Shown: positions 3,051 through 31,789 of the stretch, in pieces
How the letters are laid out: each line of letters opens with the position of its first letter
Numbering within the stretch: the first letter of the stretch is position 1
Source of the DNA: Nonlabens ponticola
GTDB taxonomy: Bacteria > Bacteroidota > Bacteroidia > Flavobacteriales > Flavobacteriaceae
NCBI RefSeq assembly: GCF_003966335.1
Contig: NZ_CP034549.1
Coordinates: 2,190,001 to 2,222,000, forward strand
Direction: 5' to 3'
Length of the DNA: 32,000 nt
Program-made: the position numbers and the translations under genes
Notes under the pieces: generated by a model
Told to the model about the DNA's origin: nothing
The model's database searches: none
The model's input: only the letters and a program-made list of their open reading frames with translations

Positions 3051-3956
3051 TTATATCTCAAACACTTTACCGTCCAGCGCACAGTGGCTATTTTCAAAAA
3101 TAGGCCTTGCCTCGTCAGTAAACATGTCATAGGACTTGTACCTAGAACTGTAGTGACCTAGAATTAGCATTCCAGCGTTCGCCTGTTTAGCAATGTCTGC
3201 CGCTTGAGCAGCCGTACTGTGTTTTGTTTTTTTGCACAAATGCTCATGAGGTATTAGAAAGGTGCTTTCATGATATAGCGCAGTGACACCTTGAATTTGT
3301 GGAATTATGTCTGGCTTGTAAACAGTATCGCTACAAAATGCATAGCTCTTAGGCGCATCACCATCCGTGGTAAGCTCGTTATTAGGGATGATCTCACCAG
3401 ATTCGGCAACGTAGTCTGCGCCTTTTTTGATACCTCTATAATAGGCTTTATCAACACCATATTCCTCGCAGGCAACTATATCTAGGTGTCGCTCGCCAGG
3501 TTTTTGCTGGAACAGGAATCCATGAGTATACACGCGGTGATCTAGTGGTATGGTAGTTACTTGTATCTGATCATCCTCAAATAGTAGAGTGGCTGTGGTT
3601 TCTACGCTTTCGCGAAAGCGTAATTCAAATGGCATATAGCTGTTGCCCAGCTTCATTTGCAATTCTATCATCTGCTTGATGCCTTTAGGGCCATAAATAT
3701 GCAAGGGCGTTTCACGACCCAGCAGACAAAAAGTGCTGATCAACCCGACTAGCCCATAAACATGATCGCCGTGCAAGTGTGAAATAAATATGTGCTTAAT
3801 GCGCGAAAACTTGACGCCATGCTTGCGCAGCGCCATTTGTGTGCCCTCGCCACAATCGATTAAAAATAAATGACCGCCAGTTTCTAACACTTGTGATGTA
3901 GGACGTGCATTATCTCGTGGTGTGGCGCTGTGGCAACCTAGAATGGTAAGTTTCAA
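3051..3956 (-). CDS. rnz: Ribonuclease Z (tRNA 3' endonuclease, metallo-beta-lactamase fold)
   Basis: 301 aa with N-terminus MKLTILGCHSATP and the HLHGDH zinc motif, of typical RNase Z length. The start codon is TTG (3956..3954). Confidence 0.88.
   Translation of the reverse strand: MKLTILGCHSATPRDNARPTSQVLETGGHLFLIDCGEGTQMALRKHGVKFSRIKHIFISHLHGDHVYGLVGLISTFCLLGRETPLHIYGPKGIKQMIELQMKLGNSYMPFELRFRESVETTATLLFEDDQIQVTTIPLDHRVYTHGFLFQQKPGERHLDIVACEEYGVDKAYYRGIKKGADYVAESGEIIPNNELTTDGDAPKSYAFCSDTVYKPDIIPQIQGVTALYHESTFLIPHEHLCKKTKHSTAAQAADIAKQANAGMLILGHYSSRYKSYDMFTDEARPIFENSHCALDGKVFEI
3606..3619. repeat. Iterated palindrome GCTTTCGCGAAAGC, copy 1 (inside rnz; extended 20-bp palindrome at 3603..3622)
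   Basis: Exact 14-mer. Context is TACGCTTTCGCGAAAGCGTA. It encodes RFRES in RNase Z. Confidence 0.95.
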
Positions 3957-4022
3957 TACTTTTTTTGTGGAAGTTACAATGTGATGTGTCTAGGTATGCG
4001 GTAAAGAAGTATTAAAATCCTC

Positions 4023-4355
4023 CTAGAACCCTAGATCGCGCTCGATTTCTTCCATCTCAATGACATCTTGTGCCTCTTGAATCGTAGGAACCACAAGCAA
4101 CTCATCAGGAATTTCATCTACAGGTACTGCGTCGTTGACAATAACTAGAGACTTTTTGCCGGCTCTATGTGTGTTACTTAAAGACAGATAACATAGTAAA
4201 TCTTGCAAACTCATTTCATTATACTTGAGCAAGTCGATAACCAAATTTTGATCTGCAAAGCCTTCGTGGATTTTAGTCAGGAAGGTGGCAAAGTCGCAAA
4301 CGCCATCTTGATCATCTTGAAGTAAGGTATAGTTATCTTGAACGGTACTAGTCAT
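4023..4355 (-). CDS. Hypothetical acidic protein (possible STAS-like fold)
   Basis: A 110-aa ORF whose start overlaps the pyrB stop by 8 nt (GATGACTAG), suggesting translational coupling. The pattern LVIDL...KKSLVIVND...VVPTIQEAQDVIEME resembles STAS or anti-sigma-antagonist topology; this is only weak recognition. Confidence 0.6.
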   Translation of the reverse strand: MTSTVQDNYTLLQDDQDGVCDFATFLTKIHEGFADQNLVIDLLKYNEMSLQDLLCYLSLSNTHRAGKKSLVIVNDAVPVDEIPDELLVVPTIQEAQDVIEMEEIERDLGF

Positions 4356-5283
4356 CTCGCTTAATTTTTGATGCGATCAAATATAAAACTGCCATGCGAA
4401 TGGCGACACCATTTTCTACTTGATTTAAGATTATTGCCTGATCTGAGTCTGCTACCTCACTGGTTATTTCAACACCACGGTTGATAGGACCTGGATGCAT
4501 GATGACAATTTCCTTATCTAGACTGTCAAGTATCTTGCGCGTCACACCGTATTGCTGGACATATTCACGTACACTAGGAAAATAGCTTATGTCCATACGT
4601 TCGTTTTGTACGCGCAGCATGTTGGCCACATCACACCATTGCAGGGCCTTCTTCAAATTATGTTCAACAAGAACACCTAGGCTCTCAATATGTTTAGGAA
4701 TTAGGGTGGCTGGGCCACAAACCATAACCTCAGCACCTAATTTTTTAAGGCAGTAGATATTTGATAGAGCTACACGACTATGGAGAATATCGCCGACAAT
4801 GACTACTTTTTTACCATCCAGAGATCCTAATTTCTCTTTGATGGAATAACTATCCAACAACGCTTGGGTAGGATGCTCGTGAGCACCATCGCCTGCATTC
4901 ACTATTCTCGCATTCACATTCTTGGAAAGGAACACACCAGCTCCAGGATTGGGGTGACGCATCACGACGATGTCCACTTTCATTGCGAGAATGTTATTGA
5001 CTGTATCAATTAAAGTCTCACCCTTCTTTACAGAACTTTGTGCTGCGCTAAAATTGATAACATCTGCACTTAGTCTCTTTTCGGCTAGTTCAAAACTTAG
5101 CTTGGTACGTGTGGAATTCTCAAAAAATAAATTGGCAATCGTAATGTCTCTCAGTGATGGTACTTTCTTGATAGGTCGATTGATCACTTCCTTAAACTGA
5201 TTTGCTGTAGTATGGATGAGTTCAATATCTTCTCGAGTAAGATATTTGATCCCTAGCAAGTGGTCTACGCTCAGACTGCTCAT
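4348..5283 (-). CDS. pyrB: Aspartate carbamoyltransferase catalytic subunit
   Basis: 311 aa with motifs STRTKLSFE, HEHPTQALLD and MHPGPINRG. Confidence 0.93.
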   Translation of the reverse strand: MSSLSVDHLLGIKYLTREDIELIHTTANQFKEVINRPIKKVPSLRDITIANLFFENSTRTKLSFELAEKRLSADVINFSAAQSSVKKGETLIDTVNNILAMKVDIVVMRHPNPGAGVFLSKNVNARIVNAGDGAHEHPTQALLDSYSIKEKLGSLDGKKVVIVGDILHSRVALSNIYCLKKLGAEVMVCGPATLIPKHIESLGVLVEHNLKKALQWCDVANMLRVQNERMDISYFPSVREYVQQYGVTRKILDSLDKEIVIMHPGPINRGVEITSEVADSDQAIILNQVENGVAIRMAVLYLIASKIKRDD

Positions 5284-5828
5284 GAATTCTCAGTTTTAAG
5301 AAGATAGACTGCATCTACTCCATCGTTTTCTTTCCATGACACCTTGACTTTTTGGTTTCCCAAGGCATCAACTTGCCTACCATTGTAATCTGGCTGGATA
5401 GGTAAATGTCTTGAAAATCTGCGATCGATAAGTGTTAGTAACTCAACGGTTTCAGGACGTCCAAAAGACTGCAAAGCTGTCAGTGCTGCACGAATGCTGC
5501 GACCTGTATAAAGAACATCATCAACGATGACTACATTTTTGTTTTCTAAAATAAAGTCAATTTGAGTGCTATTTGCTTGCAGTGGCTCTTCACCTCTTCG
5601 AAAATCATCTCTATAAAAAGTGATATCTAATTTACCTGTCTTGAGGTTTGAAATATTGTATTCTGATTGAAGCAATCTTGCAATACGATCTAACAGAAAT
5701 GAACCTCGAGGTTGAACACCGATAAGTGCTGTATTTGAAAAATCATCATGATTTTCAATCAACTGACAAACGAGACGATGCAAGGTCATGTCTAGCTGTG
5801 CGGCGTTGAGTAGTGTCTTTTGACTCAT
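5280..5828 (-). CDS. pyrR: Bifunctional pyrimidine regulatory protein PyrR / uracil phosphoribosyltransferase
   Basis: 182 aa with the PRPP-binding loop VVIVDDVLYTGRSIRAAL. An ATGA stop/start overlap with pyrB indicates an operon. Confidence 0.88.
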   Translation of the reverse strand: MSQKTLLNAAQLDMTLHRLVCQLIENHDDFSNTALIGVQPRGSFLLDRIARLLQSEYNISNLKTGKLDITFYRDDFRRGEEPLQANSTQIDFILENKNVVIVDDVLYTGRSIRAALTALQSFGRPETVELLTLIDRRFSRHLPIQPDYNGRQVDALGNQKVKVSWKENDGVDAVYLLKTENS

Positions 5829-5844
5829 TTAAATATGATTGAGT

Positions 5845-5852
5845 CAAAGATA
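5845..5852 (-). promoter_or_regulatory. Candidate -7 box (TATCTTTG) for the pyrR-pyrB operon
   Basis: TAnnTTTG on the minus strand, 16 nt upstream of the pyrR ATG. This implies a very short leader. Confidence 0.35.
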
Positions 5853-5972
5853 CAGTATTTAAAAAACCATTTTAAATTCTAGTTCTGAAACTATTTCTCA
5901 ATAAAATTGAACGCTTATAAGCACAACATAGGGATCTTTTAATTCTTATTTTCACAGTAAATTTTGATCATC

Positions 5973-7496
5973 ATGCGTTTTTATGTTGTCTGCATTGTTT
6001 TTTCATTAGCTGCTTTACATATAAGCGCACAAAAGGATGCTACTCCAGACTTAAAAGAGCAGCAAGCATTTATAGAGCTTGACTTCCTATCAATACCTCG
6101 AGATGCTGGCGAGGCCAACCTTACCTTATCAGGATCACATTTCAATTTAAAATTTGACAATGGCCTATATACTGGTATCGGAATTTATGGTGCAATCATT
6201 GGAGAGCGCGGTGGTTTCTTCACTCTTGGAGCTAACGCTGGGTATCAAGGCGATCTCACTGAAAACCTGTTTTATGATTTAGGTCTGCACATAGGTGGTG
6301 GTGGTGGCGATAGTGCACCAGATGGTGGTGGCGCATTCTTAATACCACAGGCAAAGCTAGGATACCGTTTTGAAAATTTTAATTTAAGCGCCGGTTATAG
6401 TTATATAAACTTTTTTGACAATGGTGATATTAATGAACATCAGGTCATAGCTGGAATTCAATTCCCGATTGAATTTGATCATACTGATTATTCAAATGCT
6501 AATCAGGACTATTCATTGAAGGATCTAAAAAATACATCGTGGGATAAAGAGAAATCAAGACTAGGCTTCATGGTTCATTTAAATAATCTCAAAACTTCAG
6601 GTCAGTCTCAAAATACAAGAGGTGTTCTATATAACGGTGCGACTATAAGATTAGTAGGTGTTGAAGTTTCTGCTCCTTTGAAAAATGGCTTCTTTACCTA
6701 TGCACGATTTGATGGCGCCTATGATGGCATTAAGTCCGGCTACATGGACGTCTTCTTGGGTGCTGGTCATGAATTCGCCTTTAATAGAAATCGTACGAGA
6801 ATTCTAGCAAAATTTGCTGCTGGTGCTGGCGGCGGTGGCGGCGTGGATACGCAAGGCGGTTTTCTGGTGTATCCGGATTTAAGCCTCGAACAGCAATTAT
6901 TCAACAATACTTATCTGGCTTTAAACCTGGGTTCTGTTTTATCGCCTAATCAACATTTTATAAGCACAGCTTACGGTCTAGGCTTAAAATATGATGTGAA
7001 CTATAATGGACTTGATCAGCGCGATCAGAATAAGGAAAGACGTTCTAAGTTTTATGGCTTGCAAGTAATACTCAAAGAAGATCTGTATTTGAACGCTGGA
7101 CGTATTGATGAAGCAGATCAAGATCTTTATCAGATTGCGTTACAAGTAAATCTAGATTTAGGAAACCACTTTTATCTCGCTGGACAGACTGCATTTGCAA
7201 ACTTCGGCGGTGCTGGCGCATATGCTGAAGGTCTTGTAGGTGCTGGTTTGCATACCAAACCATTCATAAATGATCGTGCGCGACTATTTGGTCAGGTGCT
7301 GGCTGGTGCGGCTGGTGGTGGACAAGTAAGCACCGGTCAAGGATTGATCGTCAAACCTAGTCTGGGCCTTGAGGTATTTCTCAGTGACCGATTTGGCCTG
7401 AGAGCTGCTGGTGGTTATGTGGATGCCGTAAGAGGCGATTTAAGTAGCCCGATATTGAATCTAGGTCTTACTTATAACATTGCTATTCTTAAGTAG
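5973..7496 (+). CDS. Hypothetical secreted or outer-membrane protein with three Gly-rich internal repeats
   Basis: The ORF track starts at a TTG (5964); the ATG at 5973 gives the signal peptide MRFYVVCIVFSLAALHISAQ. Alternating beta-strand-like segments are present. Three related blocks contain G4-5 runs: HIGGGGGDSAPDGGGAFLIPQAKLGY, AAGAGGGGGVDTQGGFLVYPDLSLE and LAGAAGGGQVSTGQGLIVKPSLGLE. Confidence 0.75.
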   Translation: MRFYVVCIVFSLAALHISAQKDATPDLKEQQAFIELDFLSIPRDAGEANLTLSGSHFNLKFDNGLYTGIGIYGAIIGERGGFFTLGANAGYQGDLTENLFYDLGLHIGGGGGDSAPDGGGAFLIPQAKLGYRFENFNLSAGYSYINFFDNGDINEHQVIAGIQFPIEFDHTDYSNANQDYSLKDLKNTSWDKEKSRLGFMVHLNNLKTSGQSQNTRGVLYNGATIRLVGVEVSAPLKNGFFTYARFDGAYDGIKSGYMDVFLGAGHEFAFNRNRTRILAKFAAGAGGGGGVDTQGGFLVYPDLSLEQQLFNNTYLALNLGSVLSPNQHFISTAYGLGLKYDVNYNGLDQRDQNKERRSKFYGLQVILKEDLYLNAGRIDEADQDLYQIALQVNLDLGNHFYLAGQTAFANFGGAGAYAEGLVGAGLHTKPFINDRARLFGQVLAGAAGGGQVSTGQGLIVKPSLGLEVFLSDRFGLRAAGGYVDAVRGDLSSPILNLGLTYNIAILK

Positions 7497-7500
7497 ACGT

Positions 7501-7569: not shown

Positions 7570-7672
7570 CAGCATATAGCTTGACTCCAGCTATTATAGG
7601 TATTCCATAGTATTGAACTGTCTACCGGATTATTAACGTGTGAAAGTAATCAATACGTCACAATCAAGCCAT

Positions 7673-7731: not shown

Positions 7732-9639
7732 TTACTCTTCTTCTTTTGCTGCTTTCTTAGACTTCTTCTTGGCTGGTGCAGCTTTCACTTTACCTTCCAT
7801 TTGATCTTTCAATGCTTGTAGTTTAGAATTAGCATCACCTAGCGTTGGCTTTTCAGCTTCTTGTTGCTGCTTAGCCGCTTGCTTAACGATTTTTGCTTCT
7901 TCTTCTTTGTGGATTACCATATGTGATCCAACTACACGTTTGAATTCCTTATTGAACTCGATGATCTCGATCTTAGCAGTCTCACCTTTCTTCAATTTAG
8001 TTCCGTCTTCTTTCTCAAGGTGACGTGAAGGAATGAATACTGTGATATCGTCGTTGAAAGTTACAACTGCACCCTTATCAACCATATCAGTAATCTCAAC
8101 CTCGTGAGTTGTTCCTAGACCAAATTCAGCCTCATACTTATCCCATGGGTTATCCTTAGTCTGCTTGTGTCCTAGAGACAACTTGCGACCATTAACATCT
8201 AGTTCAAGAACTACTACATCAAGCTTGTCACCTACCGCACAGAATTCTGATGGGTGCTTCACTTTCTTAGTCCATGATAGGTCAGAGATGTAGATCAATC
8301 CATCAACGCCTTCTTCAAGCTCTACAAACACACCAAAGTTGGTGAAGTTTCTAACGATACCTGTGTGGCGTGAACCAACAGGATACTTAGTTGTGATATC
8401 AGTCCATGGATCTTGTGATAGCTGCTTCATACCAAGAGACATCTTGCGGTCTTCTCTATCAATAGTAAGAACCTCTGCATCGATGATGTCACCTACTTTT
8501 ACAAAGTCACCAGCACTTCTCAAGTGCGTTGACCATGACATTTCAGATACGTGAACGAGTCCTTCAACACCTTCTTCTACCTCTACAAACGCACCGTAGT
8601 CTGCGATGACAACAACCTTACCTTTGACTTTATCGCCTGGTTTGATCTTGTCAGATAGCGCTTCCCATGGGTGAGCCTCTAGTTGCTTCATACCTAACTG
8701 GATACGTGACTTATCTTCATCAAAGTCAAGGATTACCACATTAAGCGTCTGGTCTAGTTCTACCACCTCATTAGGGTGGTTGATACGTGACCATGATAGG
8801 TCAGTAATGTGTACCAGTCCATCAACACCACCTAGATCAACAAACACACCGTAAGAAGTGATGTTCTTCACAACACCTTCCAATACTTGTCCTTTCTCTA
8901 GACGAGAGATGATTTCTTTTTTCTGCTCTTCAATATCTGCCTCGATAAGCGCTTTGTGCGATACAACAACATTCTTGAACTCGTGGTTAATTTTCACCAC
9001 CTTGAATTCCATGCTCTTGTCAACGTATGCATCATAATCACGGATAGGTTTAACGTCAATTTGGGATCCTGGCAAGAATGCCTCAATTCCAAAAACGTCA
9101 ACGATCATACCACCTTTGGTACGACATTTTACATAACCATTTACGATCTCGCCAGTGTCATGTGCATTGTTTACACGTTCCCATGCTTTGATCAAGCGTG
9201 CTTTACGGTGAGACAATACTAGTTGACCTGTGGCGTCTTCACGTACATCAACCAATACCTCAACCTTATCACCTTCTTTAAGGTTCTGGTTGTAACGGAA
9301 CTCGTTGAGTGAGATTACACCTTCAGATTTTGCATTGATGTCGATGATAGCATCACGATCAGTGATTTTGATCACGGTACCCTCAATCACATCGTTATCA
9401 ATAGTGTCTACAAAGTTTTCAGCTACTAGCTTTTCAAAAGCCTTAAGTTGATCTTCGTCTACTTTCTCGATACCTTCACTGTAACGTTCCCAGTCAAAAG
9501 TGTCTAGGAATTCAGTAGGATTTTTTTGTGCTTCAGAAATGGTGACTGGTGTCGCCTTTTCTACCTGCTCTTGAACTTGTTCTTGAGTAACACCATCTTG
9601 TGCTGCCTCTAGTTCTTGTTTTGTTGTTTCTTCAGCCAT
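7732..9639 (-). CDS. rpsA: 30S ribosomal protein S1
   Basis: 635 aa with repeated S1 (OB-fold) modules (GxVxxVxxxGAFVxL-type blocks such as YGVFVDLGGVDGLVHITD and YGAFVEVEEGVEGLVHVSE). It has an acidic N-terminal extension and a Lys-rich tail. Confidence 0.93.
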   Translation of the reverse strand: MAEETTKQELEAAQDGVTQEQVQEQVEKATPVTISEAQKNPTEFLDTFDWERYSEGIEKVDEDQLKAFEKLVAENFVDTIDNDVIEGTVIKITDRDAIIDINAKSEGVISLNEFRYNQNLKEGDKVEVLVDVREDATGQLVLSHRKARLIKAWERVNNAHDTGEIVNGYVKCRTKGGMIVDVFGIEAFLPGSQIDVKPIRDYDAYVDKSMEFKVVKINHEFKNVVVSHKALIEADIEEQKKEIISRLEKGQVLEGVVKNITSYGVFVDLGGVDGLVHITDLSWSRINHPNEVVELDQTLNVVILDFDEDKSRIQLGMKQLEAHPWEALSDKIKPGDKVKGKVVVIADYGAFVEVEEGVEGLVHVSEMSWSTHLRSAGDFVKVGDIIDAEVLTIDREDRKMSLGMKQLSQDPWTDITTKYPVGSRHTGIVRNFTNFGVFVELEEGVDGLIYISDLSWTKKVKHPSEFCAVGDKLDVVVLELDVNGRKLSLGHKQTKDNPWDKYEAEFGLGTTHEVEITDMVDKGAVVTFNDDITVFIPSRHLEKEDGTKLKKGETAKIEIIEFNKEFKRVVGSHMVIHKEEEAKIVKQAAKQQQEAEKPTLGDANSKLQALKDQMEGKVKAAPAKKKSKKAAKEEE

Positions 9640-9824: not shown

Positions 9825-9838
9825 GCTTTCGCGAAAGC
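9825..9838. repeat. Iterated palindrome, copy 2 (intergenic, between the rpsA and DUF1801 promoters)
   Basis: Exact 14-mer. Context is TTACGCTTTCGCGAAAGCATAA. Confidence 0.95.
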
Positions 9839-9880: not shown

Positions 9881-10339
9881 ATGACATCAACCGCAACAAC
9901 ACCAGAGCAATACCTCGACGAATTAACTGAAGAGCGACATCAGGCAGTGCGCAAATTGAGAGATACCGTAAGAGAAAATCTGCCCGACGGGTTTGAGGAA
10001 TCCATGGGTTATGGCATGATTGCTTATCAAGTGCCTTTATCCAGCTATCCTAAAGGTTATCATGCTGGCAAAGAGCCTACACCACTACCTTTTATCAATA
10101 TTGCTTCACAGAAAAATCATATTGCTCTGTATCATATGGGTCTATATTCCAGGCCTGATTTGCTAGACTGGTTCAAAGATGAATTTCCTAAACACAGCAA
10201 GCGAAAACTCGATATGGGAAAGAGCTGCATCCGTTTTAAGAATATTGACGATATTCCCTATGATTTGATAGGCGACTTATGTGGCAAGGTTCATGTGCAG
10301 GATTGGATCAAAGTTTATGAATCAGTAATTAAAAGATAG
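9881..10339 (+). CDS. DUF1801 (YdhG-like) domain protein
   Basis: The ORF in the track starts at a TTG (9815) that overlaps the palindrome and -7 box; the ATG at 9881 (MTSTATTPEQYLDEL...) is more plausible. The sequence pattern EQYLDEL...RHQAVRKLRDTVRENLP...MIAY recalls the DUF1801 family. Confidence 0.65.
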   Translation: MTSTATTPEQYLDELTEERHQAVRKLRDTVRENLPDGFEESMGYGMIAYQVPLSSYPKGYHAGKEPTPLPFINIASQKNHIALYHMGLYSRPDLLDWFKDEFPKHSKRKLDMGKSCIRFKNIDDIPYDLIGDLCGKVHVQDWIKVYESVIKR

Positions 10340-12612: not shown

Positions 12613-13041
12613 ATGATTGAATTGAGTTTACTAGAATTATTGAAACTATCCTGCGATGTAGGTCTTGTCGTTCTTATATGGATTGTGCAATTACTTATCT
12701 ATCCTAGCTTTATCTATTTTGCGGGCGATGGCCTGGCGCGATGGCATACTATTTACACACGCAACATCACTTTTATTGTATTGCCTTTGATGCTGGGTCA
12801 GTTATTGTTATCAGGCTGGCTGTTATTCGGTAATGCAGATTATACAGCTGTGAGAATTGCCGACTTTATTCTTGTGGGAAGCATGTGGGCAAGCACGGCT
12901 TTTTACTACAAGCCACTGCATGAGAAATTGCAAAAGGAGCCGCATCGTAAGGAATTGTGTATAGAGTTGACGACATCCAACTGGTGGCGTGTTGCAGTGT
13001 GGACGGTAATTTTGGTGTTGAATTTTATTGTTATTTGGTGA
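12613..13041 (+). CDS. Hypothetical 4-TM membrane protein
   Basis: A 142-aa ORF with four hydrophobic segments; the family is not recognised with confidence (possibly DUF1772-like). Confidence 0.6.
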   Translation: MIELSLLELLKLSCDVGLVVLIWIVQLLIYPSFIYFAGDGLARWHTIYTRNITFIVLPLMLGQLLLSGWLLFGNADYTAVRIADFILVGSMWASTAFYYKPLHEKLQKEPHRKELCIELTTSNWWRVAVWTVILVLNFIVIW

Positions 13042-13048: not shown

Positions 13049-13155
13049 TTGGAGCTTGGAGCTTGGAGCTTGGAGCTTGGAGCTTGGAACTTGGAACTTG
13101 GAACTTGGAACTTGGAACTTGGAACTTGGAACTTGGAACTTGGAACTTGGAACTT
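13049..13155 (+). repeat. Pure heptanucleotide tandem array (TTGGAGC)x5 (TTGGAAC)x10
   Basis: Direct count: TTGGAGC units start at 13049, 13056, 13063, 13070 and 13077. TTGGAAC units start at 13084 through 13147 in steps of 7. There are no interruptions. Confidence 0.97.
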
Positions 13156-13166: not shown

Positions 13167-13565
13167 ATGAGTGAAAAAAGCATGAGTTTGACATTAAAAC
13201 TAGCAGCCATCTACAACATTTTATGGGGCGCATGGGTAGTGATCTTTCCTGATATGTTTTGGGATCTTGTGGGCATGGAGCGACTCAACCAACCTATGGT
13301 CTGGCAAGGAATGGGAATGGTGATTGGTGTTTATGGATTAGGATACTGGTGGGCAAGCTATAACCCGATGAGGCACTGGCCTATTGTCGCGGTTGGTATG
13401 CTGGGTAAAATCTTTGGGCCGCTAGGGTTTGTATTCAACCATGCGCAAGGCAAGGTTCCGTTTGAATTTATCTATACCTTGATTACCAACGATTTTATCT
13501 GGTGGATACCGTTTTTCTTGATTTTGAAAAAGGTGCATACTGATTATCAATGGAAGCTCAACTAG
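13167..13565 (+). CDS. Hypothetical Trp-rich 4-TM membrane protein
   Basis: A 132-aa ORF with four hydrophobic helices (IYNILWGAWVVIF, GMGMVIGVYGLGYWWA, WPIVAVGMLGKIFGPLGFVF, FIWWIPFFLIL). The ATG is 11 nt after the heptamer array. Confidence 0.65.
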   Translation: MSEKSMSLTLKLAAIYNILWGAWVVIFPDMFWDLVGMERLNQPMVWQGMGMVIGVYGLGYWWASYNPMRHWPIVAVGMLGKIFGPLGFVFNHAQGKVPFEFIYTLITNDFIWWIPFFLILKKVHTDYQWKLN

Positions 13566-16485: not shown

Positions 16486-16499
16486 GCTTTCGCGAAAGC
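16486..16499. repeat. Iterated palindrome, copy 3 (intergenic, 181 nt upstream of rpoD)
   Basis: Exact 14-mer. Context is TTTTGCTTTCGCGAAAGCGTAAC. Confidence 0.95.
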
Positions 16500-16679: not shown

Positions 16680-17543
16680 ATGAGACAACTCAAAATCACC
16701 AAGCAGGTAACTAATCGTGAGTCAAAATCACTTGACAAATACTTGCAGGACATCAGTAAGATAGACCTGATTACTGCAGAGGAAGAAGTGGAACTCGCGC
16801 AACGTATCAAAAAAGGTGATCAGAGAGCACTTGAGAGATTGACGACTGCAAACTTACGTTTTGTGGTTTCTGTTGCAAAGCAGTATCAAAATCAAGGGCT
16901 TAAATTACCCGATCTTATTAATGAAGGAAATGCCGGACTTGTAAAGGCTGCCAAAAGGTTTGATGAAACTCGCGGATTTAAATTCATATCATACGCTGTA
17001 TGGTGGATACGCCAGTCGATCTTACAGGCACTAGCAGAGCAGTCACGTATCGTGCGATTACCTCTTAATAAAATTGGTTCTATCAACAAGATTAATAAAG
17101 CATTTTCACACCTTGAGCAACTGCACGAGCGTCCACCATCGCCAGAAGAGCTAGCTAATGAGTTAGATATGACGGTAAGTGATGTGAAGCAATCGCTTAA
17201 AAATGCGGGACGTCACGTATCGATGGATGCACCTCTTAAAGAAGGTGAGACATCAAATCTATATGACGTTGTGCGCAGTGGTGAGTCACCTAATCCTGAT
17301 CGTGTATTGTTGCACGAGTCACTAACGCTAGAGATTACTCGCGCGCTGGAGACGCTTTCTCAAAAGGAGGCAGATGTGATCTCGCTATACTTCGGTATCG
17401 GGAACCAGCAGCCTATGAGTCTGGAAGAAATAGGTGAAACCTTTGACCTTACTCGTGAGCGCGTGCGCCAGATCAAGGAAAAAGGTATCAAGAGACTGCG
17501 TCAAAACAGCCGCAGTAAGATCTTGAAGTCTTACCTAGGATAA
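16680..17543 (+). CDS. rpoD: Primary RNA polymerase sigma factor (sigma-70 family, Bacteroidetes SigA)
   Basis: 287 aa with region 2 ([35 protein letters not shown]) and region 4.2 ([18 protein letters not shown]). Confidence 0.93.
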
Positions 17544-21877: not shown

Positions 21878-22369
21878 TTGGATAACATAGTAAAGAAAAC
21901 GGCTGCAATTTACGGTATCATAGGCGCACTGATTACCATAGGTAGCTATGTTTATATCTGGCAAACCAGGGATTTCGACAACCTATCGATAGGCATTGGT
22001 TTATTAATTGTTCATTTGATTCTTGCCGTTGGCGCCCAGATTCACAGTAAGAAAAAGTTGGGTGGCTACCTTAGTTTAAAGCAGGCTGTGCTTGCCTTTG
22101 TGGCTTGTGCAGCGATCATGTTTTTATCTGAGGCTATTATAAATTACTTGATTTACGTGGTTTGGGATCCAGCGGCACAGGAACAAGTGGCTCAAATGAC
22201 CGCAGAGTTGGCTGAACAACGTCGAGCAAATTCAAATCAGGAAATTGAAGAAGCAACCATAGATTACACCATTGCTGGCTATGCACAGGCAGCCGTTTCA
22301 AAATTACTGATCTATACCGTTTTTGGTATCATTGCTGGACTCATCATTAAGAAAAACCCACCAGCCTAG
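21878..22369 (+). CDS. DUF4199-like membrane protein
   Basis: 163 aa with a TTG start and four hydrophobic helices. It sits immediately upstream of, and overlaps by 1 nt, a GT2 gene, as I recall for DUF4199 genes in Flavobacteriia. Confidence 0.6.
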   Translation: MDNIVKKTAAIYGIIGALITIGSYVYIWQTRDFDNLSIGIGLLIVHLILAVGAQIHSKKKLGGYLSLKQAVLAFVACAAIMFLSEAIINYLIYVVWDPAAQEQVAQMTAELAEQRRANSNQEIEEATIDYTIAGYAQAAVSKLLIYTVFGIIAGLIIKKNPPA

Positions 22370-23319
22370 TGGATCTATCCATCGTCATACCGCTACTCAA
22401 CGAGGCGCAATCACTACCTGAATTGCAGGAATGGATCGATCGCGTACTAGCCACCACGACGCTAGAATACGAGGTCATTTACATAGACGATGGCAGTACA
22501 GATGCAAGTTGGACATTTTTGAGTCAGCTTTCGCGAAAGCGTAACAACATATCAGCCATACAATTCCTTTCTAACTACGGTAAATCTCAAGCGCTACATG
22601 CAGGATTTGCTCGTGCGCAAGGCAATGTGGTCGTGACCATGGATGCAGATTTGCAGGACAGTCCAGAAGAGATTCCTGCACTTTATGATATGATCGCAAA
22701 CGACGGTTATGACCTGGTAAGTGGCTGGAAGAAGAAGCGTTACGACTCAGTCCTTTCTAAAAATTTACCAAGTAAATTATTCAATTGGGCAGCGCGAAGA
22801 ACTAGTGGTGTCAAGCTCAATGACTTTAATTGTGGTCTTAAGGCCTATCGAAAGGATGTGGTAAAAAATATCGACGTGCATGGCGAGATGCATAGGTATA
22901 TTCCTGTACTAGCGTCAAACGCTGGTTATACCAACATCACCCAAAAAGTCGTCCAGCATCAGGCTCGCAAATATGGTGAGACAAAATTTGGTTATGACAG
23001 GTTCATAAAAGGTTTTCTGGATCTGGTGACGATTGCTTTTATCTCAAGATTTGGTAAGCGTCCCATGCACTTGTTTGGTACAATTGGGTTTGTCATGTTT
23101 ATTTTGGGATTTGTGATTGCTGCCTACACAGGCGCTTCAAAACTCTACAAAATGGCAGCCGATTTACCGTATGAATTAGTGACACGCAATCCATGGTTTT
23201 ACATCGCATTGACTTCCATGATTTTGGGTAGTTTGTTCTTTATCGCTGGATTTTTAGGAGAATTGATCATTCGCACAGGACCCACTACAGACCGCTACAA
23301 AATAGCCGATAAACAGTAG
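22369..23319 (+). CDS. Family 2 glycosyltransferase (polyprenyl-phosphate glycosyltransferase type), core copy
   Basis: 316 aa with a GTG start. Motifs include LSIVIPLLNE, YIDDGSTD, NYGKSQAL, MDADLQDSPEE and two C-terminal TM helices. Confidence 0.85.
   Translation: MDLSIVIPLLNEAQSLPELQEWIDRVLATTTLEYEVIYIDDGSTDASWTFLSQLSRKRNNISAIQFLSNYGKSQALHAGFARAQGNVVVTMDADLQDSPEEIPALYDMIANDGYDLVSGWKKKRYDSVLSKNLPSKLFNWAARRTSGVKLNDFNCGLKAYRKDVVKNIDVHGEMHRYIPVLASNAGYTNITQKVVQHQARKYGETKFGYDRFIKGFLDLVTIAFISRFGKRPMHLFGTIGFVMFILGFVIAAYTGASKLYKMAADLPYELVTRNPWFYIALTSMILGSLFFIAGFLGELIIRTGPTTDRYKIADKQ
22527..22540. repeat. Iterated palindrome, copy 4 (inside the core GT2 gene)
   Basis: Exact 14-mer. Context is TCAGCTTTCGCGAAAGCGTAAC. 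It encodes QLSRKR. Confidence 0.95.
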
Positions 23320-25311: not shown

Positions 25312-25334
25312 TAGACTATTTGACCTACAATTTT

Positions 25335-27050
25335 ATGGACAAGGAACATATATTAAAAGTCGCTCAAGCATGGACGCAAGCACCATTTGACGCGCAAACC
25401 ATTGCAACGACACAACAACTTATTGACTCACAGTCTGATGAGTACCTAGAGAGTTTTTATAAAGATCTAGAATTTGGTACTGGTGGCATGCGAGGTATCA
25501 TGGGAATAGGCACCAACCGCATCAATAAGTACACACTAGGCAAAAACACTCAAGGCCTCGCGACTTATCTCAAGACCAGTTTTCCTGGCGAGCAGCTCAA
25601 GGTTGCCATCGCTTATGATTGCCGCCACAACAGCAAGGAATTGGCACAAGTAGTCGCACAGGTTTTGAGCGCTAACGATATCCAAGTATTACTGTTTGAA
25701 GATTTAAGGCCTACTCCACTATTATCTTACACGGTTAAAGCTCGCAATTGTCACGCAGGTATTGTGCTAACTGCAAGTCATAATCCACCAGAATATAATG
25801 GTTACAAAGTGTACTGGCAGGATGGTGGTCAACTGGTACCACCGCAGGATAAAGAACTGTTGCAAACCATTAATGATACCCAATTTGCCGACATCAAATT
25901 CGATGGTGACAACGATACAATCGAATTGTTGGGCGATGATGCTGATGCAGCTTTTATCAAAGACAGCGTTAAGGCTGGAAAAGTAGCTGGCGATGTAGAT
26001 CGCAGTAAGGTAAAAGTAGTTTTTACTAGTCTTCACGGTACGAGCATTACCATTTTACCAGATACACTTGAAGCTGCTGGATATACCGATGTAAACATAG
26101 TACAAGAACAAGCAAAGCCTGATGGCGATTTCCCAACCGTGGAATCACCCAATCCTGAAGAACCAGAAGCACTGGCACTTGCCGTGCAATTGGCCAACAA
26201 AATTCATGCAGACATCGTCATAGGCACAGATCCTGACAGCGATCGATTAGGTATTGCCGTGCGCGACAATGACCATAAATTATTGCTGCTCAACGGTAAT
26301 CAGACCATGATTGCCATGACTGCTTTTTTACTAGAACAGACAGAACTGACGAATAAGAAAGATCCTTTTATAGGATCCACCATCGTGAGTACGCCCATGA
26401 TGAAAGATCTAGCAGCTGGTTTTAATGTTGAGTGTAAAGAAGGCCTTACCGGTTTCAAATGGATCGCGCAGATGATCCAGAATCATCCAAATCAAGATTT
26501 CATTGGTGGCGGCGAGGAAAGTTTTGGATATATGGTAGGCGATTTTGTTCGTGACAAGGATGCCGTTACCGCAAGTTTATTGGCTTGTGAACTGTTAGCT
26601 TTCGCGAAAGCTAAAAAAACAACACCCTACAACTACCTACTGGAATTGTATGTCAAATACGGTTGTTACCAGGAACGCCTTGTGAGCCTAGTCAAAAAAG
26701 GAATAAGCGGCGCGCAGGAAATCAAGCAAATGATGATCGAATTACGTGATAATCCACCACAGGAAATCGCAGGATTTAAGGTGTCCCGTATTGAGGATTA
26801 TCAATCAGGTAGCTCTCTAAATACAGCAACGGGAAACAAAGAAAATATCGAGTTACCATCATCAAATGTGCTTATTTTTTACCTAGAAAACGGCAGTAAA
26901 ATAGCGGCTAGACCTAGCGGTACAGAGCCTAAAATCAAATTTTACATCTCAGTAAAAGAAGAGCTGGATCACGCTGATAATTATGATGTTGTAAAGAGTC
27001 AATTGGATCAACAAATAGACGCTATTCTTAACAGCCTACAAGTCAATTAA
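25335..27050 (+). CDS. Phosphoglucomutase/phosphomannomutase family protein (alpha-D-phosphohexomutase)
   Basis: Active-site loop TASHNPPEYNGYK, metal loop GTDPDSDR, sugar loop GGEESFG and phosphate loop RPSGTEPK. The ATG at 25335 is preferred over the track's TTG at 25320. Confidence 0.9.
   Translation: MDKEHILKVAQAWTQAPFDAQTIATTQQLIDSQSDEYLESFYKDLEFGTGGMRGIMGIGTNRINKYTLGKNTQGLATYLKTSFPGEQLKVAIAYDCRHNSKELAQVVAQVLSANDIQVLLFEDLRPTPLLSYTVKARNCHAGIVLTASHNPPEYNGYKVYWQDGGQLVPPQDKELLQTINDTQFADIKFDGDNDTIELLGDDADAAFIKDSVKAGKVAGDVDRSKVKVVFTSLHGTSITILPDTLEAAGYTDVNIVQEQAKPDGDFPTVESPNPEEPEALALAVQLANKIHADIVIGTDPDSDRLGIAVRDNDHKLLLLNGNQTMIAMTAFLLEQTELTNKKDPFIGSTIVSTPMMKDLAAGFNVECKEGLTGFKWIAQMIQNHPNQDFIGGGEESFGYMVGDFVRDKDAVTASLLACELLAFAKAKKTTPYNYLLELYVKYGCYQERLVSLVKKGISGAQEIKQMMIELRDNPPQEIAGFKVSRIEDYQSGSSLNTATGNKENIELPSSNVLIFYLENGSKIAARPSGTEPKIKFYISVKEELDHADNYDVVKSQLDQQIDAILNSLQVN
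26598..26611. repeat. Iterated palindrome, copy 5 (inside pgm; extended 18-bp palindrome at 26596..26613)
   Basis: Exact 14-mer. Context is TAGCTTTCGCGAAAGCTA. It encodes AFAKA. Confidence 0.95.
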
Positions 27051-28873
27051 TGAATTACTTTAAGGAAATCCTGCAGTACGCAAAGCCTTACAAGGCCTAT
27101 GGTATAGGGAATATTATTAGTAACATATTTTACGCGCTGTTCAGTACATTGTCATTTTTGGCACTTATTCCTGTACTGCAAGTACTTTTTGAGGAAACGG
27201 ATCAAGTTTTTGAAAAACCAGTGTGGACTGGTATCGCCACGGCTCGTGATTTCCTGGAAGGTTATGTGAACTACTATGTGTCTGTGGTGGCAGATAACGA
27301 CAAACAACAGGCTTTGATCATCATGATTGTGCTTGTGCTAAGTATGTTTTTACTCAAGAATGTATTCTCGTACCTAGGTATGTATTTTATAACATTCCTG
27401 CGCAATGGTGTGGTGCGAGATCTGCGCAACGCGATGTATCAAAAGATTGTTCATTTGCCAATATCATTCTTTTCTGAGAAGCGCAAAGGTGATGTCATCG
27501 CTAGATCAACGAGTGACATCCATGAGGTGCAAAGCAGTTTTCTATCCATTCTCGAACTTATCGTCAAGGAACCGCTCAACATCATATTTACTTTAGGCGC
27601 CATGTTATTGTTGAGCATCAAGCTCACGATCTTTGTTTTGGTGTTCATTCCTGTAAGTGGTTACATTATCTCGCTGGTAGGTAAAAAATTAAAAAGCAAA
27701 TCGCTCAAGGTGCAGCGCGAGCAAGGAACATTTTTATCTCTGCTGGAAGAAACTCTTGGTGGGCTTAAGGTTATCAAAGGATTCAATGCTGAAAGTCGAA
27801 TGACTGATACTTTTCAAGACAGTACGCAGCGACTGTATCGTCATAGCAATAGTTTGAGTTTGCGTAAAAATCTAGCCAGTCCAGTGAGTGAATTTCTAGG
27901 TATTCTCGTGATCGGTGTTCTCCTATGGTTTGGTGGTAGAATGGTACTGTTGGATGGCACTATCAACGGTTCTACATTCATTACCTTTATGGGACTTGCT
28001 TACGGTATTTTGACGCCAGCAAAAGCGCTTTCAAAGGCAAGTTATGACGTCAAGAAAGGTAATGCCAGTGCAGAGCGTGTTCTGCAGATTTTGCATACCA
28101 AAAACCACATAAAAGATCGTGACGATGCTGTTGAGATATCCGCTTTCGCGAAAGCGGTACAAATCAAAAACCTATCCTTTGCCTATGAGGATGAGAACGT
28201 CTTGACCAATTTCTCGCTAGACATTCCTATTGGGTCCACCGTGGCGCTGGTAGGTCAATCAGGTAGTGGAAAAAGTACCATAGCAAATCTTGTAACCCGA
28301 TTTTATGATGTGAGTGAAGGAACGATCGAGATCGATGGTCATAATATTAAGGATGTGACTCTTAAAAGTTTGCGAGATCAGATGGCAATTGTGACGCAAG
28401 ACTCTATTCTTTTTAACGATACGGTCGCAGTCAACGTGGCACTGAGCAATAAAAATGCAAGCAATGAAGAAGTCATCGAGGCACTCAAAATCGCTAACGC
28501 ATGGGAATTTGTATCGCAACTACCAGAAGGTATCCATACCAACATAGGTGATAGCGGTAATAAATTAAGTGGTGGTCAAAAACAGCGATTGAGCATTGCC
28601 CGCGCCGTTCTTAAAAATGCACCAATTCTAGTACTCGACGAGGCGACAAGTGCTCTGGATACTGAAAGTGAACGACTGGTTCAAGATGCGCTTGAAAAAG
28701 TCATGAAAGACCGTACGTCTATTGTAATCGCTCACCGATTGAGTACCATTCAAAAAGCAGATCACATCGTGGTCATGAGCCGTGGCGAGATTGTAGAACA
28801 AGGAACTCACGAGGAATTGATTGCACAACAAGGTGCGTATGCTAATCTTGTGAATATGCAGAGTTTGGCTTAG
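27050..28873 (+). CDS. ABC transporter permease/ATPase fusion (MsbA/lipid exporter-like)
   Basis: 607 aa with a 6-TM N-terminal domain, Walker A GQSGSGKST, signature LSGGQKQR and Walker B ILVLDEATSALD. A TAATG overlap with the pgm stop is present. Confidence 0.9.
   Translation: MNYFKEILQYAKPYKAYGIGNIISNIFYALFSTLSFLALIPVLQVLFEETDQVFEKPVWTGIATARDFLEGYVNYYVSVVADNDKQQALIIMIVLVLSMFLLKNVFSYLGMYFITFLRNGVVRDLRNAMYQKIVHLPISFFSEKRKGDVIARSTSDIHEVQSSFLSILELIVKEPLNIIFTLGAMLLLSIKLTIFVLVFIPVSGYIISLVGKKLKSKSLKVQREQGTFLSLLEETLGGLKVIKGFNAESRMTDTFQDSTQRLYRHSNSLSLRKNLASPVSEFLGILVIGVLLWFGGRMVLLDGTINGSTFITFMGLAYGILTPAKALSKASYDVKKGNASAERVLQILHTKNHIKDRDDAVEISAFAKAVQIKNLSFAYEDENVLTNFSLDIPIGSTVALVGQSGSGKSTIANLVTRFYDVSEGTIEIDGHNIKDVTLKSLRDQMAIVTQDSILFNDTVAVNVALSNKNASNEEVIEALKIANAWEFVSQLPEGIHTNIGDSGNKLSGGQKQRLSIARAVLKNAPILVLDEATSALDTESERLVQDALEKVMKDRTSIVIAHRLSTIQKADHIVVMSRGEIVEQGTHEELIAQQGAYANLVNMQSLA
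28142..28155. repeat. Iterated palindrome, copy 6 (inside the ABC exporter gene; extended 18-bp palindrome at 28140..28157)
   Basis: Exact 14-mer. Context is CCGCTTTCGCGAAAGCGG. It encodes AFAKA. Confidence 0.95.
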
Positions 28874-28876
28874 GTT

Positions 28877-30538: not shown

Positions 30539-30540
30539 AA

Positions 30541-30570
30541 AAATCTGCAAGAAATAATTCCTGCAGATTT
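30541..30570. terminator. Bidirectional terminator hairpin between convergent genes
   Basis: AAATCTGCA 30541..30549 pairs with TGCAGATTT 30562..30570. It is flanked by an A-run upstream (30537..30543) and T3 downstream. Confidence 0.55.
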
Positions 30571-30590
30571 CTAATAATATTTATCACTTA

Positions 30591-31181
30591 TTATAGTACG
30601 AGACTAAGTGCTATGATTACTTGTTCTGGTCTGGTATCGATTCTTACATTGTCAAACATATCATTTGCATAACGCGCTTCATTCTCATTGAGACCACGCT
30701 CATAACGCACGTCAACACCTAGATTACCTAGATTCACGCCTACTCCAAATTGAAGACCAACCGTGAAATCATCTTGTGCATCACGCAGATCAAAGTTTAC
30801 TGCACCAGTATCAAAATCTGTATCTAGAATATATTGCAGCGATGGACCAGCAAAAACATGCAATGGACCTAACACCTCAAGGCCTACCAATATTGGAGCG
30901 TCAAGTTTTTTAACCTCAAAGTCACCAGCGTTGTACTCACTATTTAATTTTGTGTATATAAGTTCTGGTCTGAAATATATCGGGCCAAGATCTACTTTAC
31001 CAAAAACACCGACATGATATCCTACTCGATCGTCTGGATTTTCAGTAATGTTATTAAAATTGTCTTGAAAATCACCAACAGACCCATAGTTGAGTCCACC
31101 TTTGATCCCGAAGCCACCATCTGTCTGGGCATAGCTCAATCCTGCTAACAATAGGGTTGCTGCAATAAATAAATTTTTCAT
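30591..31181 (-). CDS. Small outer-membrane beta-barrel (porin-family) protein
   Basis: 196 aa with signal peptide MKNLFIAATLLLAGLSYAQ. Alternating-residue beta strands and Gly/aromatic girdles continue to the C-terminus. Confidence 0.75.
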   Translation of the reverse strand: MKNLFIAATLLLAGLSYAQTDGGFGIKGGLNYGSVGDFQDNFNNITENPDDRVGYHVGVFGKVDLGPIYFRPELIYTKLNSEYNAGDFEVKKLDAPILVGLEVLGPLHVFAGPSLQYILDTDFDTGAVNFDLRDAQDDFTVGLQFGVGVNLGNLGVDVRYERGLNENEARYANDMFDNVRIDTRPEQVIIALSLVL

Positions 31182-31322
31182 AGTATAAGGGTTTATAAAA
31201 GCAAAACGCTTAGTTCATAATTTTATTGACTAATAATTATGCCAAAAACTTAAAGACGGTATCTTTCTTCAAGGATAAAGTTAATTAGTTCCCTAAATAT
31301 TTCGGATATTGCTAGAATAGTA

Positions 31323-31342
31323 TATATTTGTACATACAATTA
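31323..31342 (+). promoter_or_regulatory. Candidate marR promoter -7 box (TATATTTG) overlapping a palindromic operator-like motif (TTGTACATACAATTA)
   Basis: TAnnTTTG lies at 31323..31330. The 15-nt motif at 31328..31342 recurs 14/15 at 31806..31820, upstream of the yceI-like gene. Confidence 0.4.
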
Positions 31343-31357
31343 ATACAAATACAATAG

Positions 31358-31789
31358 ATGAGTAATAAGGTTGTTGATATTCCGCTTTCGCGAAAGCTAA
31401 TCACCACGCTAATTAAAAAAGGCGCAGGGATGACTGAAGCTATTGCGAGTGTCTTGAAAGAGGAAAAACTGACAATCCAACAATTCAATGTGTTGCGTAT
31501 TCTACGTGGCCGAAAAGGCGAACCTGCAACGCTACAAGATGTAAGTAAGAATATGTTACATGCAAATTCTAATACCACACGTGTTATTGACAAGCTTGTT
31601 GACAAGAAGTATGTTGAGCGCGTACAATGTTGTGATGATAGAAGGCAAATCCAGCTCACTATTACAAAAACAGGCCTTTCCCTACTTAAAAGATTGGATC
31701 AAAAAGTAGATGATAAAGAAAATGCCTTGCTTGATAATATGTCTTTGAATGACAAAAAGACTTTGACCGATCTATTGGAAAAACTATAA
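31358..31789 (+). CDS. MarR-family transcriptional regulator
   Basis: 143 aa with a winged-HTH pattern: LTIQQFNVLRILRG...ATLQDVSKNMLHANSNTTRVIDKLVDKKYVERV...DRRQIQLTITKTG. Confidence 0.85.
   Translation: MSNKVVDIPLSRKLITTLIKKGAGMTEAIASVLKEEKLTIQQFNVLRILRGRKGEPATLQDVSKNMLHANSNTTRVIDKLVDKKYVERVQCCDDRRQIQLTITKTGLSLLKRLDQKVDDKENALLDNMSLNDKKTLTDLLEKL
31384..31397. repeat. Iterated palindrome, copy 7 (inside marR)
   Basis: Exact 14-mer. Context is TCCGCTTTCGCGAAAGCTAA. It encodes PLSRKL. Confidence 0.95.

Follow-up and report, generated by a model that had tools for sequence, protein, structure and literature searches.

A highly iterated palindrome of Nonlabens and Dokdonia that appears to be constrained at the DNA level

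The stretch of DNA analysed here, referred to as the window, comprises 32,000 nucleotides of Nonlabens ponticola (contig NZ_CP034549.1, positions 2,190,001 to 2,222,000). It contains seven exact copies of GCTTTCGCGAAAGC, a perfect 14-bp palindrome that encloses an NruI site (TCGCGA), starting at positions 3606, 9825, 16486, 22527, 26598, 28142 and 31384. Copies with one or two mismatches do not occur in the window. In dinucleotide-preserving shuffles of the window, 0.09 matches were obtained with two mismatches tolerated, and about zero exact copies are expected where seven are seen. A previous reading of the window, based on its letters only and referred to below as the sequence-only reading, had placed five of the seven copies inside coding sequences (rnz, a family-2 glycosyltransferase (GT2), pgm, an ABC exporter and marR) and had described the use of all three reading frames. 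Both descriptions are correct. The products of pgm, rnz and marR match proteins of N. ponticola, encoded on a 2.87-Mb contig, at 100% identity. The host-gene identities assigned with Pfam and the coordinates agree with the former, and the frames were verified as AFAKA in pgm and the ABC exporter, LSRK in GT2 and marR, and FRES in rnz. The copies are located as follows:

3606..3619: copy in rnz (RNase Z; gene 3051-3956, minus strand), read as R-F-R-E-S at amino acids 113-118, phase 1
9825..9838: copy between genes, located 43 bp ahead of the likely start codon of a DUF1801 gene (ATG at 9881)
16486..16499: copy between genes, some 190 bp ahead of an rpoD-like sigma-70 gene (16680-17543)
22527..22540: copy in the GT2 gene (22369-23319, plus strand), read as L-S-R-K(R) at amino acid 53, phase 2
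26598..26611: copy in pgm (phosphoglucomutase; gene 25320/25335-27050, plus strand), read as A-F-A-K-A at amino acids 427-431, phase 0
28142..28155: copy in an MsbA-like ABC exporter gene (27050-28873, plus strand), read as A-F-A-K-A at amino acids 365-369, phase 0
31384..31397: copy in marR (gene 31358-31789, plus strand), read as (P)L-S-R-K at amino acids 9-10 (codons 9-13), phase 2
3581..31422: outer bounds of the copies with their extended flanks, from the first to the last

The palindrome is a genome-wide signature of a clade and not a local feature of the window, because of its distribution in a scan across species, its density of one copy per 3.7 kb and the copy-free outgroups. The scan searched for the exact 14-mer in one genome per species, covering 185,579 species, and returned 8-kb blocks. 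Among the at least 120 blocks listed, 33 stem from Dokdonia, 24 from Nonlabens and 28 from unnamed metagenome-assembled genomes (MAGs) of Flavobacteriaceae type, about 85 together; the blocks were grouped by the author of the analysis, and the taxon labels of MAGs were used as deposited. Many of these blocks among the matches listed hold two or three copies per 8 kb. The rest of the blocks among the matches listed consists of 6 from other flavobacteria and 29 single, chance-like matches in unrelated phyla. The density in Nonlabens is based on six loci with 38 copies in 138,962 bp, namely the window and the regions surrounding pgm and rnz that are syntenic to it in N. marinus, N. agnitus and N. 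dokdonensis. The density per genome was estimated from these sampled loci, and a number of about 800 copies per genome is an extrapolation from one copy per 3.7 kb. The syntenic loci of Pontimicrobium, Robertkochia, Altibacter lentus and Aquimarina spongiae contain no copy, and those of Pontimicrobium and Robertkochia contain none even with three mismatches allowed. A search for 'dialect' palindromes in Pontimicrobium, Robertkochia and phage yielded none either. In Dokdonia sp. R86516, the blocks originate from 0.88, 1.38, 2.15 and 2.82 Mb of the chromosome.

The use of all three phases extends to the whole clade. In 86 loci of Nonlabens or Dokdonia type, 144 copies were collected and assigned to frames on the basis of open frames of at least 120 codons, not gene calls. 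Under this definition, 103 copies (72%) are located in long open frames, where they encode AFAKA (54 copies), FRES (24) or LSRK (25), and the other 41 are not in a long frame. A search of about 8 million full-text papers for the 14-mer and its 12-mer core found no occurrence, and an iterated palindrome of Nonlabens and Dokdonia appears to be undescribed in the searchable literature. Two contigs deposited as 'uncultured Aquimarina sp.' (L071 and L110; comparison loci carry L numbers here, followed by the position within the locus where one is given) have a copy at the matching position of an orthologous protein with 71% identity, and in one of the two a further copy is present. The syntenic Aquimarina spongiae locus is free of copies. 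The motif extends to a further lineage, or else these records are mislabelled.

At orthologous positions, the 14 nucleotides are identical in N. ponticola, N. marinus and N. agnitus, and at most sites also in N. dokdonensis, species which share about 72-79% identity in the pgm protein. Orthologous 8-kb blocks of Dokdonia share copy positions as well, in one case within a protein pair of 52% identity. Between Nonlabens and Dokdonia, a single candidate for a shared site was found, which lies ahead of an orthologous ABC gene. Within the motif, 18 of the 20 codons with a conserved amino acid are identical in all species, compared to 175 of 979 (18%) elsewhere in the same genes (Fisher p=9e-12). 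In addition, the motif imposes minor codons on its host genes, namely GCG (14% of Ala), TCG (9% of Ser) and CGA (17% of Arg). Since the copies persist letter-perfect despite these minor codons and despite replaced amino acids, the constraint acts on DNA. The sequence-only reading had argued for selection or a spreading mechanism that acts on DNA or RNA and not on the protein, and for the DNA the frozen synonymous sites, the minor codons, the lineage-specific peptides and the use of all phases bear this out.

The intergenic copies share this positional conservation. Besides preceding the DUF1801 gene, the copy at 9825 lies some 190 bp from the start of rpsA (7732-9639, minus strand), on its upstream side, and the position upstream of rpsA is likewise occupied in N. 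agnitus (L246 5708) and N. dokdonensis (L245 4352). For the copy at 16486 upstream of rpoD, N. agnitus has a copy at an equal offset (L122 151). In both cases, the motif centre lies about 187-195 bp from the start codon, an offset that is kept in two to three Nonlabens species. The copy at 9825 is also situated between TTTG and TAtaTTTG, which resemble the -33/-7 promoter elements of Bacteroidetes, ahead of the DUF1801 gene.

The origin of the five intragenic copies was examined with alignments of orthologues, at codon level for GT2, pgm, the ABC exporter and rnz and at protein level for MarR. None of the five sites shows a gap. In GT2, LAQKS or LSNTH of the outgroups corresponds to LSRKR in Nonlabens, with identical DNA at the site in N. 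marinus, N. agnitus and N. dokdonensis. In the ABC exporter, DFNSN or TFDEK became AFAKA in Nonlabens, and in pgm the outgroups and motif-less relatives have AYAKN or AQAKA in place of AFAKA. In rnz, the conserved x-F-H-E-L of the outgroups (TAT TTT CAT GAA TTG) is changed to R-F-R-E-S (CGC TTT CGC GAA AGC), and MarR has PLSRKL where its relatives have LAKNT, ALNRKL or PIARRL. Nonlabens lineages that do not have a given copy retain ancestral-like residues, such as HFTEL in rnz of N. agnitus and AYAKA in pgm. Since the alignments are free of gaps and the peptides are changed, each copy must have taken several point substitutions, some of them nonsynonymous. The exact peptides are therefore lineage-specific, and the distant orthologues encode different peptides rather than the same ones in other codons. 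The sequence-only reading had allowed for a spreading mechanism; a spread of the motif as a unit is not borne out, because the copies were built in place and not inserted. Its placement of the sites in loops, linkers or surface segments holds in part. The ABC site lies in the linker between the membrane domain (amino acids 77-315) and the ATPase domain (amino acids 385-534), and the MarR site lies in the N-terminal tail ahead of the winged-helix domain (amino acids 38-98). In contrast, residues 112-117 at the rnz site are predicted to form a β-strand (mean predicted local distance difference test (pLDDT) score of the model 90.7), and the pgm site is a conserved A-x-A-K stretch which was already close to the motif and in this sense pre-adapted.

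These alignments bear directly on two explanations, a mobile miniature element of the REP (repetitive extragenic palindrome), REPIN (REP doublet forming a hairpin) or MITE (miniature inverted-repeat transposable element) kind, and a protein motif selected at the amino acid level. The palindromic and highly repeated nature of the motif would suit the former, and the partial pre-existence of AFAKA in pgm, with its conserved A-x-A-K, would suit the latter. However, a mobile element does not agree with gap-free, mostly intragenic sites that form no clusters or pairs, and a protein motif does not agree with one DNA word that yields three unrelated peptides, with the different peptides of the outgroups or with the frozen synonymous sites. 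Both explanations are contradicted by these tests and excluded, and they keep practically no weight in our assessment.

The motif is highly specific. Clade loci contain 144 copies without mismatch and 13, 14 and 18 copies with one, two and three mismatches, respectively. The ratio of perfect to one-off copies is still about 4.5:1 after discounting the one copy per block that is required by the scan. Outside the motif, its parts occur at chance level, which applies to the sub-words (TCGCGA 21 vs 17.8 expected, and CGCG likewise not enriched) as well as to the half-sites (GCTTTCG 6 vs 5.2 expected, CGAAAGC 4 vs 5.8). It is therefore only the complete dyad that has 'value'. On these counts, a short methylation word is disfavoured as the driver of the motif, since TCGCGA or CGCG would then have to be enriched, and a Chi-like site was rejected, since the motif is palindromic and its 7-mer half-sites are not enriched.

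The mismatch spectrum is also relevant for a process without benefit to the organism, in which an enzyme linked to repair or methylation corrects near-matches to the motif. Such biased conversion was proposed by Elhai for HIP1 (highly iterated palindrome 1), an abundant cyanobacterial word. The counts of perfect and one-off copies are 438 and 947 for the uptake signal sequence (USS) and 5648 and 1830 for the HIP1 10-mer (PMC1939737), and the 144 and 13 found here are nearer to the latter. The core words TCGCGA and CGCG are typical of methyltransferases, and resident phage-like or prophage-like contigs carry copies, both of which could be expected from a conversion process. On the other hand, the inner words are not enriched alone, unlike the sub-motifs of HIP1, and the conversion tract would have to specify 14-22 bp together with the skewed flanks described below. 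Moreover, biased repair alone does not predict the even spacing or the conservation of positions. We therefore regard this explanation as quite unlikely.

Copies avoid close neighbours. Of 53 gaps between copies within 8-kb blocks, none is shorter than 500 bp (7.6 expected) and two are shorter than 1 kb (14.5 expected), and none of 5000 simulations gave values as low. In long loci, the gaps have a coefficient of variation of 0.34-0.49, compared to about 0.8 for random placement. The smallest gap found anywhere is 629 bp.

This regularity could point to an array of sites for a protein that organises or segregates the nucleoid, such as a Noc-like, SlmA-like or ParB-like protein or a bridging nucleoid-associated protein, which would bind a palindrome of 16-22 bp at regular kilobase intervals. 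The sites of the known proteins of this kind are 16 bp (parS), 14 bp (the Noc-binding site, NBS) and 12 bp (the SlmA-binding site, SBS) long. A perfect dyad of 14-22 bp resembles these sites, and copies that are mostly intragenic, conserved in position, over-dispersed and spread along whole chromosomes would suit such an array. The half-sites are not enriched, and the periodicity of HIP1 has been interpreted in the same direction (PMC5861425). Nevertheless, the known systems use tens of sites with a regional bias, compared to the approximately 800 extrapolated here, and no candidate protein is known. A variant of parS was rejected by inspection, since the TTTC and GAAA blocks are separated by 2 nt in the motif and by 4 nt in parS and NBS. 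On balance, a nucleoid array is unlikely as the explanation of the motif.

The conserved sequence extends beyond the 14-bp core. Position -1 is C in 81-89% of the half-sites, position -2 is A or C, and T is found in about 70% at position -3 and about 60% at position -4. In the rnz copy, the palindrome reaches 20 bp, and the consensus of the non-coding copies is a palindrome of 22 bp, TTAC-GCTTTCGCGAAAGC-GTAA. In frame 0, the GTAA would yield a TAA stop codon, and GAA, CAA or TAY, its nearest non-stop neighbours, are found instead. On each strand, the 5' flank is poor in C (8-10% vs 18% background) and rich in G and T out to about ±25 nt, and the 3' flank mirrors this composition. The skew holds for either side taken alone. 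Together with the preferences at positions -1 and -3, it is found in every reading frame, in non-coding copies and in both Dokdonia and Nonlabens, and it is missing around the chance matches from other phyla. In the pgm copy, the next 29 nt (26612-26640, encoding KKTTPYNYLL) are free of G, and the outgroups and motif-less Nonlabens have codons for D or G there. It seems that proteins have adapted to the flanks too. A test for complementarity of position -i with +i found none beyond ±2, and the folding energy with native flanks equals that with chimeric flanks swapped between copies. A longer structured element around the core was rejected for these reasons.

The same results affect the possibility that the motif acts as a hairpin of RNA or single-stranded DNA, with a stem of 5-9 bp and a CGCG loop, the reader of which would be an RNase, Rho or another RNA-binding protein, or a nuclease specific for single strands. 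Such a hairpin would be the same from either strand, in sense and antisense alike. The flanks, without C upstream and without G downstream, would stay unstructured and provide a rut-like tract with more C than G downstream in either direction. Hairpin repeats with oriented flanks are indeed recognised by Ssn nucleases (PMC11893778). However, the core alone is weak (-1.9 kcal/mol) and, with equal native and chimeric energies, there is no pairing specific to the flanks of a copy. A hairpin needs neither a self-complementary loop nor an exact stem sequence, and flanks rich in T on the 5' side and rich in A on the 3' side are the reverse of a terminator. The conserved copies about 190 bp upstream of start codons are also located in intergenic DNA that is possibly untranscribed. 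An Rfam search of the window gave no match, and the terminator-like sites of the window do not include the motif; a known RNA family or terminator was rejected accordingly. A hairpin function is, in our view, highly unlikely.

The occurrence of the motif in phages is mixed. The lytic Nonlabens phage P12024S (35.7 kb) has no copy, and a collection of cultured phages gave only chance-like single matches, in non-flavobacterial phages. Several contigs from IMG/VR with HNH, portal, protease and major-head genes contain two to three copies with typical flanks and a spacing of 3-6 kb. Examples are L214 (copies at 191, 6705 and 11185) and L178 (4210, 7851 and 10955), and some of the copies are inside head genes. 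These contigs are probably prophages or temperate phages of the same hosts. Because these phage-like contigs carry copies, the motif is not strictly chromosomal. A general absence from phages, which holds for P12024S, fails for some of the phage-like or prophage-like contigs of IMG/VR.

Several intergenic copies are found beside variable gene blocks. In N. agnitus, a 4.3-kb LRR/CHU_C gene is located between the DUF1801 gene and rpsA and is bracketed by two copies (L246 1373 and 5708), which form a 20-bp direct repeat, CGCTTTCGCGAAAGCGAAAT; in N. ponticola, the corresponding junction is empty and has the single copy at 9825. Such a pattern would be expected if the gene had been inserted at a copy or lost by deletion between two. 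In N. marinus, a copy (L121 307) is next to an MmeI island, and in N. dokdonensis one (L123 16261) lies at the edge of a HisKA/thioredoxin insertion. These observations could indicate a recombination site, at which copies would bound gene blocks that are inserted, deleted or exchanged, either site-specifically or mediated by microhomology. The bracketed LRR/CHU_C gene with its single-copy counterpart and the several intergenic copies at synteny breakpoints, namely the MmeI island and the HisKA/thioredoxin insertion, would be in line with it. Against it, 72% of the copies are intragenic at conserved positions, where recombination would be destructive, and other indels in the loci are not bounded by copies, for example an open reading frame (ORF) of 510 amino acids at 5964-7496 in the window. 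The association with breakpoints is also confounded, as the conserved junctions are short operon spacers without room for a copy, and no recombinase is linked to the motif. The chance that recombination is the function of these sites is thus very small.

Further features were noted in the loci. The longest motif-free stretches of their respective loci hold defence-type islands, in N. marinus (L121 463-3192) with an MmeI-family restriction-modification gene and in N. dokdonensis (L245 14458-18266) with a C5 DNA methylase, a GHKL-ATPase (HATPase_c) and a helix-turn-helix gene. This fits recently acquired DNA that lacks the motif. In the Nonlabens loci (the window, L121-L123, L245 and L246), CCGG is strongly depleted, with 79 occurrences vs 188 expected from base composition, and in the outgroup loci (L124, L125, L247 and L248) it is enriched, with 196 vs 119 expected. 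Nonlabens may therefore have a restriction system specific for CCGG. An excess of GATC is common to the Nonlabens and outgroup loci. The window also contains two tandem arrays of heptanucleotides, ATGTGGT ×19 at 1912-2045 and TTGGAAC ×15 (99% matches) at 13049-13155, the latter between the ORFs 12613-13041 and 13167-13565. Since each 7-base unit gained or lost would shift the frame or the promoter spacing, these arrays are candidate phase-variation tracts.

Taken together, we consider it very likely that the motif represents a highly iterated palindrome found throughout the Nonlabens and Dokdonia lineage, which was built by substitution and is constrained as DNA. It is probably read as duplex DNA by a symmetric, dimeric and sequence-specific protein with a footprint that reaches into the flanks, although this step is clearly less secure. 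A reader of this kind is suggested by the perfect dyad including the central CG, by half-sites and inner words that are not enriched and by the rarity of one-mismatch copies. A reading as RNA or as a short methylation word fits less well with the dyad, the unenriched half-sites and the sharp mismatch spectrum.

As for the mechanism, copies are assembled by substitutions wherever the local sequence, coding or not, tolerates them, and then persist over long divergence. The motif might serve as a tag of 'self' that is useful once per few kilobases, which would fit its even spacing at the kilobase scale, its restriction to one lineage and its absence from a lytic phage. Such a tag might mark DNA for uptake and homologous replacement, comparable to the USS and the DNA uptake sequence (DUS), and would accumulate by molecular drive and selection. 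A parallel is seen in Riemerella, described as a member of the Flavobacteriaceae, whose species are naturally competent and prefer their own DNA, with no uptake sequence identified in the study concerned (PMC7965970). Alternatively, the copies could serve as anchor points for a protein that organises the nucleoid. Uptake or recombination is our leading guess for the function, and a tentative one. The account as a whole, from the clade-wide palindrome and its dimeric duplex reader to the guess of a self tag, has in our estimation slightly better than even chances of being right. Compared to the uptake tag and the nucleoid array, biased repair, an RNA hairpin and a recombination site are weaker rivals.

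Several observations weigh against this account. Natural competence of Nonlabens or Dokdonia was not reported in the literature searched. The known uptake sequences are asymmetric, shorter and denser (about one per kb) and have many one-off variants, unlike the motif. The motif-bearing phage-like contigs are not predicted by a simple uptake model and weaken an argument from absence in phages. Furthermore, the strand-skewed flanks are unaccounted for by any proposed function. The genes of the window were inspected for candidates of the reader protein, and only ordinary housekeeping genes were seen.

In its furthest form, the interpretation would amount to a new system of self-DNA recognition in Bacteroidota, consisting of a palindromic uptake or recombination signal or an anchoring array, with a dimeric reader and a footprint of about 60 bp. 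This is conceivable but doubtful. Under such a system, about 20 codons, 5 in the core and the remainder in the skewed flanks, would have been rewritten in several hundred proteins per genome (an extrapolated number), and copies would have been left at the edges of gene blocks and copied by resident phages or prophages.

Iterated words that override coding sequence are rare and, to our knowledge, well studied only as USS/DUS in two proteobacterial families and as HIP1. The palindrome described here would be a third independent case from another phylum. It is longer and sharper, has clean outgroups and occurs in culturable hosts, Nonlabens and Dokdonia, which makes it a tractable system. The 22-bp duplex lends itself as a bait with which the reader protein could be found. 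As a practical use, the motif could serve as a taxonomic marker for the binning of metagenomic contigs, and it may be required for, or help with, the genetic manipulation of these marine flavobacteria. In addition, it calls for caution, as some 'lineage-specific residues' in the affected proteins are by-products of a DNA signal.

Among the known systems, Chi sites are asymmetric 5-8-mers that are oriented with replication and recognised on one strand, whereas the motif is palindromic. REP and REPIN elements and the NTS and SRM repeats of Ssn nucleases are, like the motif, abundant short palindromic repeats, and the bases flanking NTS matter (PMC11893778). NTS and SRM are hairpin repeats of 20-50 nt on either side of a GIY-YIG ssn gene, which are cleaved in single-stranded form. 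All of these repeats lie outside genes, are imperfect, often come in clusters or pairs and belong to a RAYT or GIY-YIG gene which they flank, whereas the motif is mostly intragenic, exact, unclustered and made by substitution. No ssn-like gene was seen in the window, and the motif is unrelated in sequence to the NTS consensus (PMC11893778).

The sites of the chromosomal proteins ParB, Noc, SlmA and MatP (parS, NBS, SBS and matS) are perfect or near-perfect palindromes of 12-16 bp which are bound by dimers and often located inside genes. The motif has in common with them the palindromic form, the often intragenic position and, if the duplex reading is right, a dimeric reader. In contrast, these sites occur in tens of copies with a regional bias, compared to the approximately 800 evenly spread copies extrapolated for the motif, and the geometry of its half-sites is unlike that of parS and NBS.

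The uptake sequences are known as USS in Pasteurellaceae and as DUS in Neisseriaceae. Like the motif, they are specific to a lineage, are present in hundreds to thousands of copies, originate by point mutation and share homologous positions (PMC2817400, PMC1939737). Both also use several coding frames, alter peptide frequencies, tend to occupy tolerant protein positions, have an extended flank consensus and are spaced fairly evenly. Uptake sequences are known to reshape proteomes and to arise via point mutation (PMC2817400, PMC1939737). However, USS and DUS are asymmetric 9-12-mers with about one copy per kb and many one-mismatch relatives, and their uptake has been shown experimentally, whereas the motif is a long palindrome with a sharp mismatch spectrum. 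The graded excess of one-mismatch variants that is a trait of USS and DUS is not found for the motif (144 perfect copies vs 13).

The function of HIP1 has been debated for 30 years. HIP1 (GCGATCGC, cyanobacteria) is likewise a perfect palindrome with a CG-containing core that is hyper-abundant throughout its lineage, within and between genes and in all frames. In both cases, conserved orthologous positions imply selection at the DNA level, the spacing is non-random (PMC5861425, PMC4390886) and perfect copies exceed one-off variants (PMC1939737). For HIP1, sites conserved within and between ORFs were described as being under selection and periodically distributed (PMC5861425), and it has been proposed as an uptake signal (bioRxiv 10.64898/2026.06.24.733823; 10.1101/2024.09.10.611283). 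Bacteroidetes are not mentioned in Elhai's survey of such palindromes. The two words differ in length (8-10 bp for HIP1, 14-22 bp for the motif), in density (once per gene or denser compared to about one per 3.7 kb) and in phylum (cyanobacteria compared to Bacteroidota). The sub-motifs of HIP1 are enriched and it is linked to orphan DNA methyltransferases that act on its internal words, whereas the inner words of the motif are not enriched and no such link is known. The strand-skewed flanks of about 25 nt belong to the motif, and none were seen described for HIP1. Regularity also takes different forms, with a lack of close neighbours at the kilobase scale for the motif and a periodicity of 10-90 kb for HIP1. 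Despite these differences, HIP1 is the closest known phenomenon, followed by USS and DUS, and the motif shows the phenomenological traits of a highly iterated palindrome, namely a palindromic sequence, an excess throughout a lineage and conserved sites.

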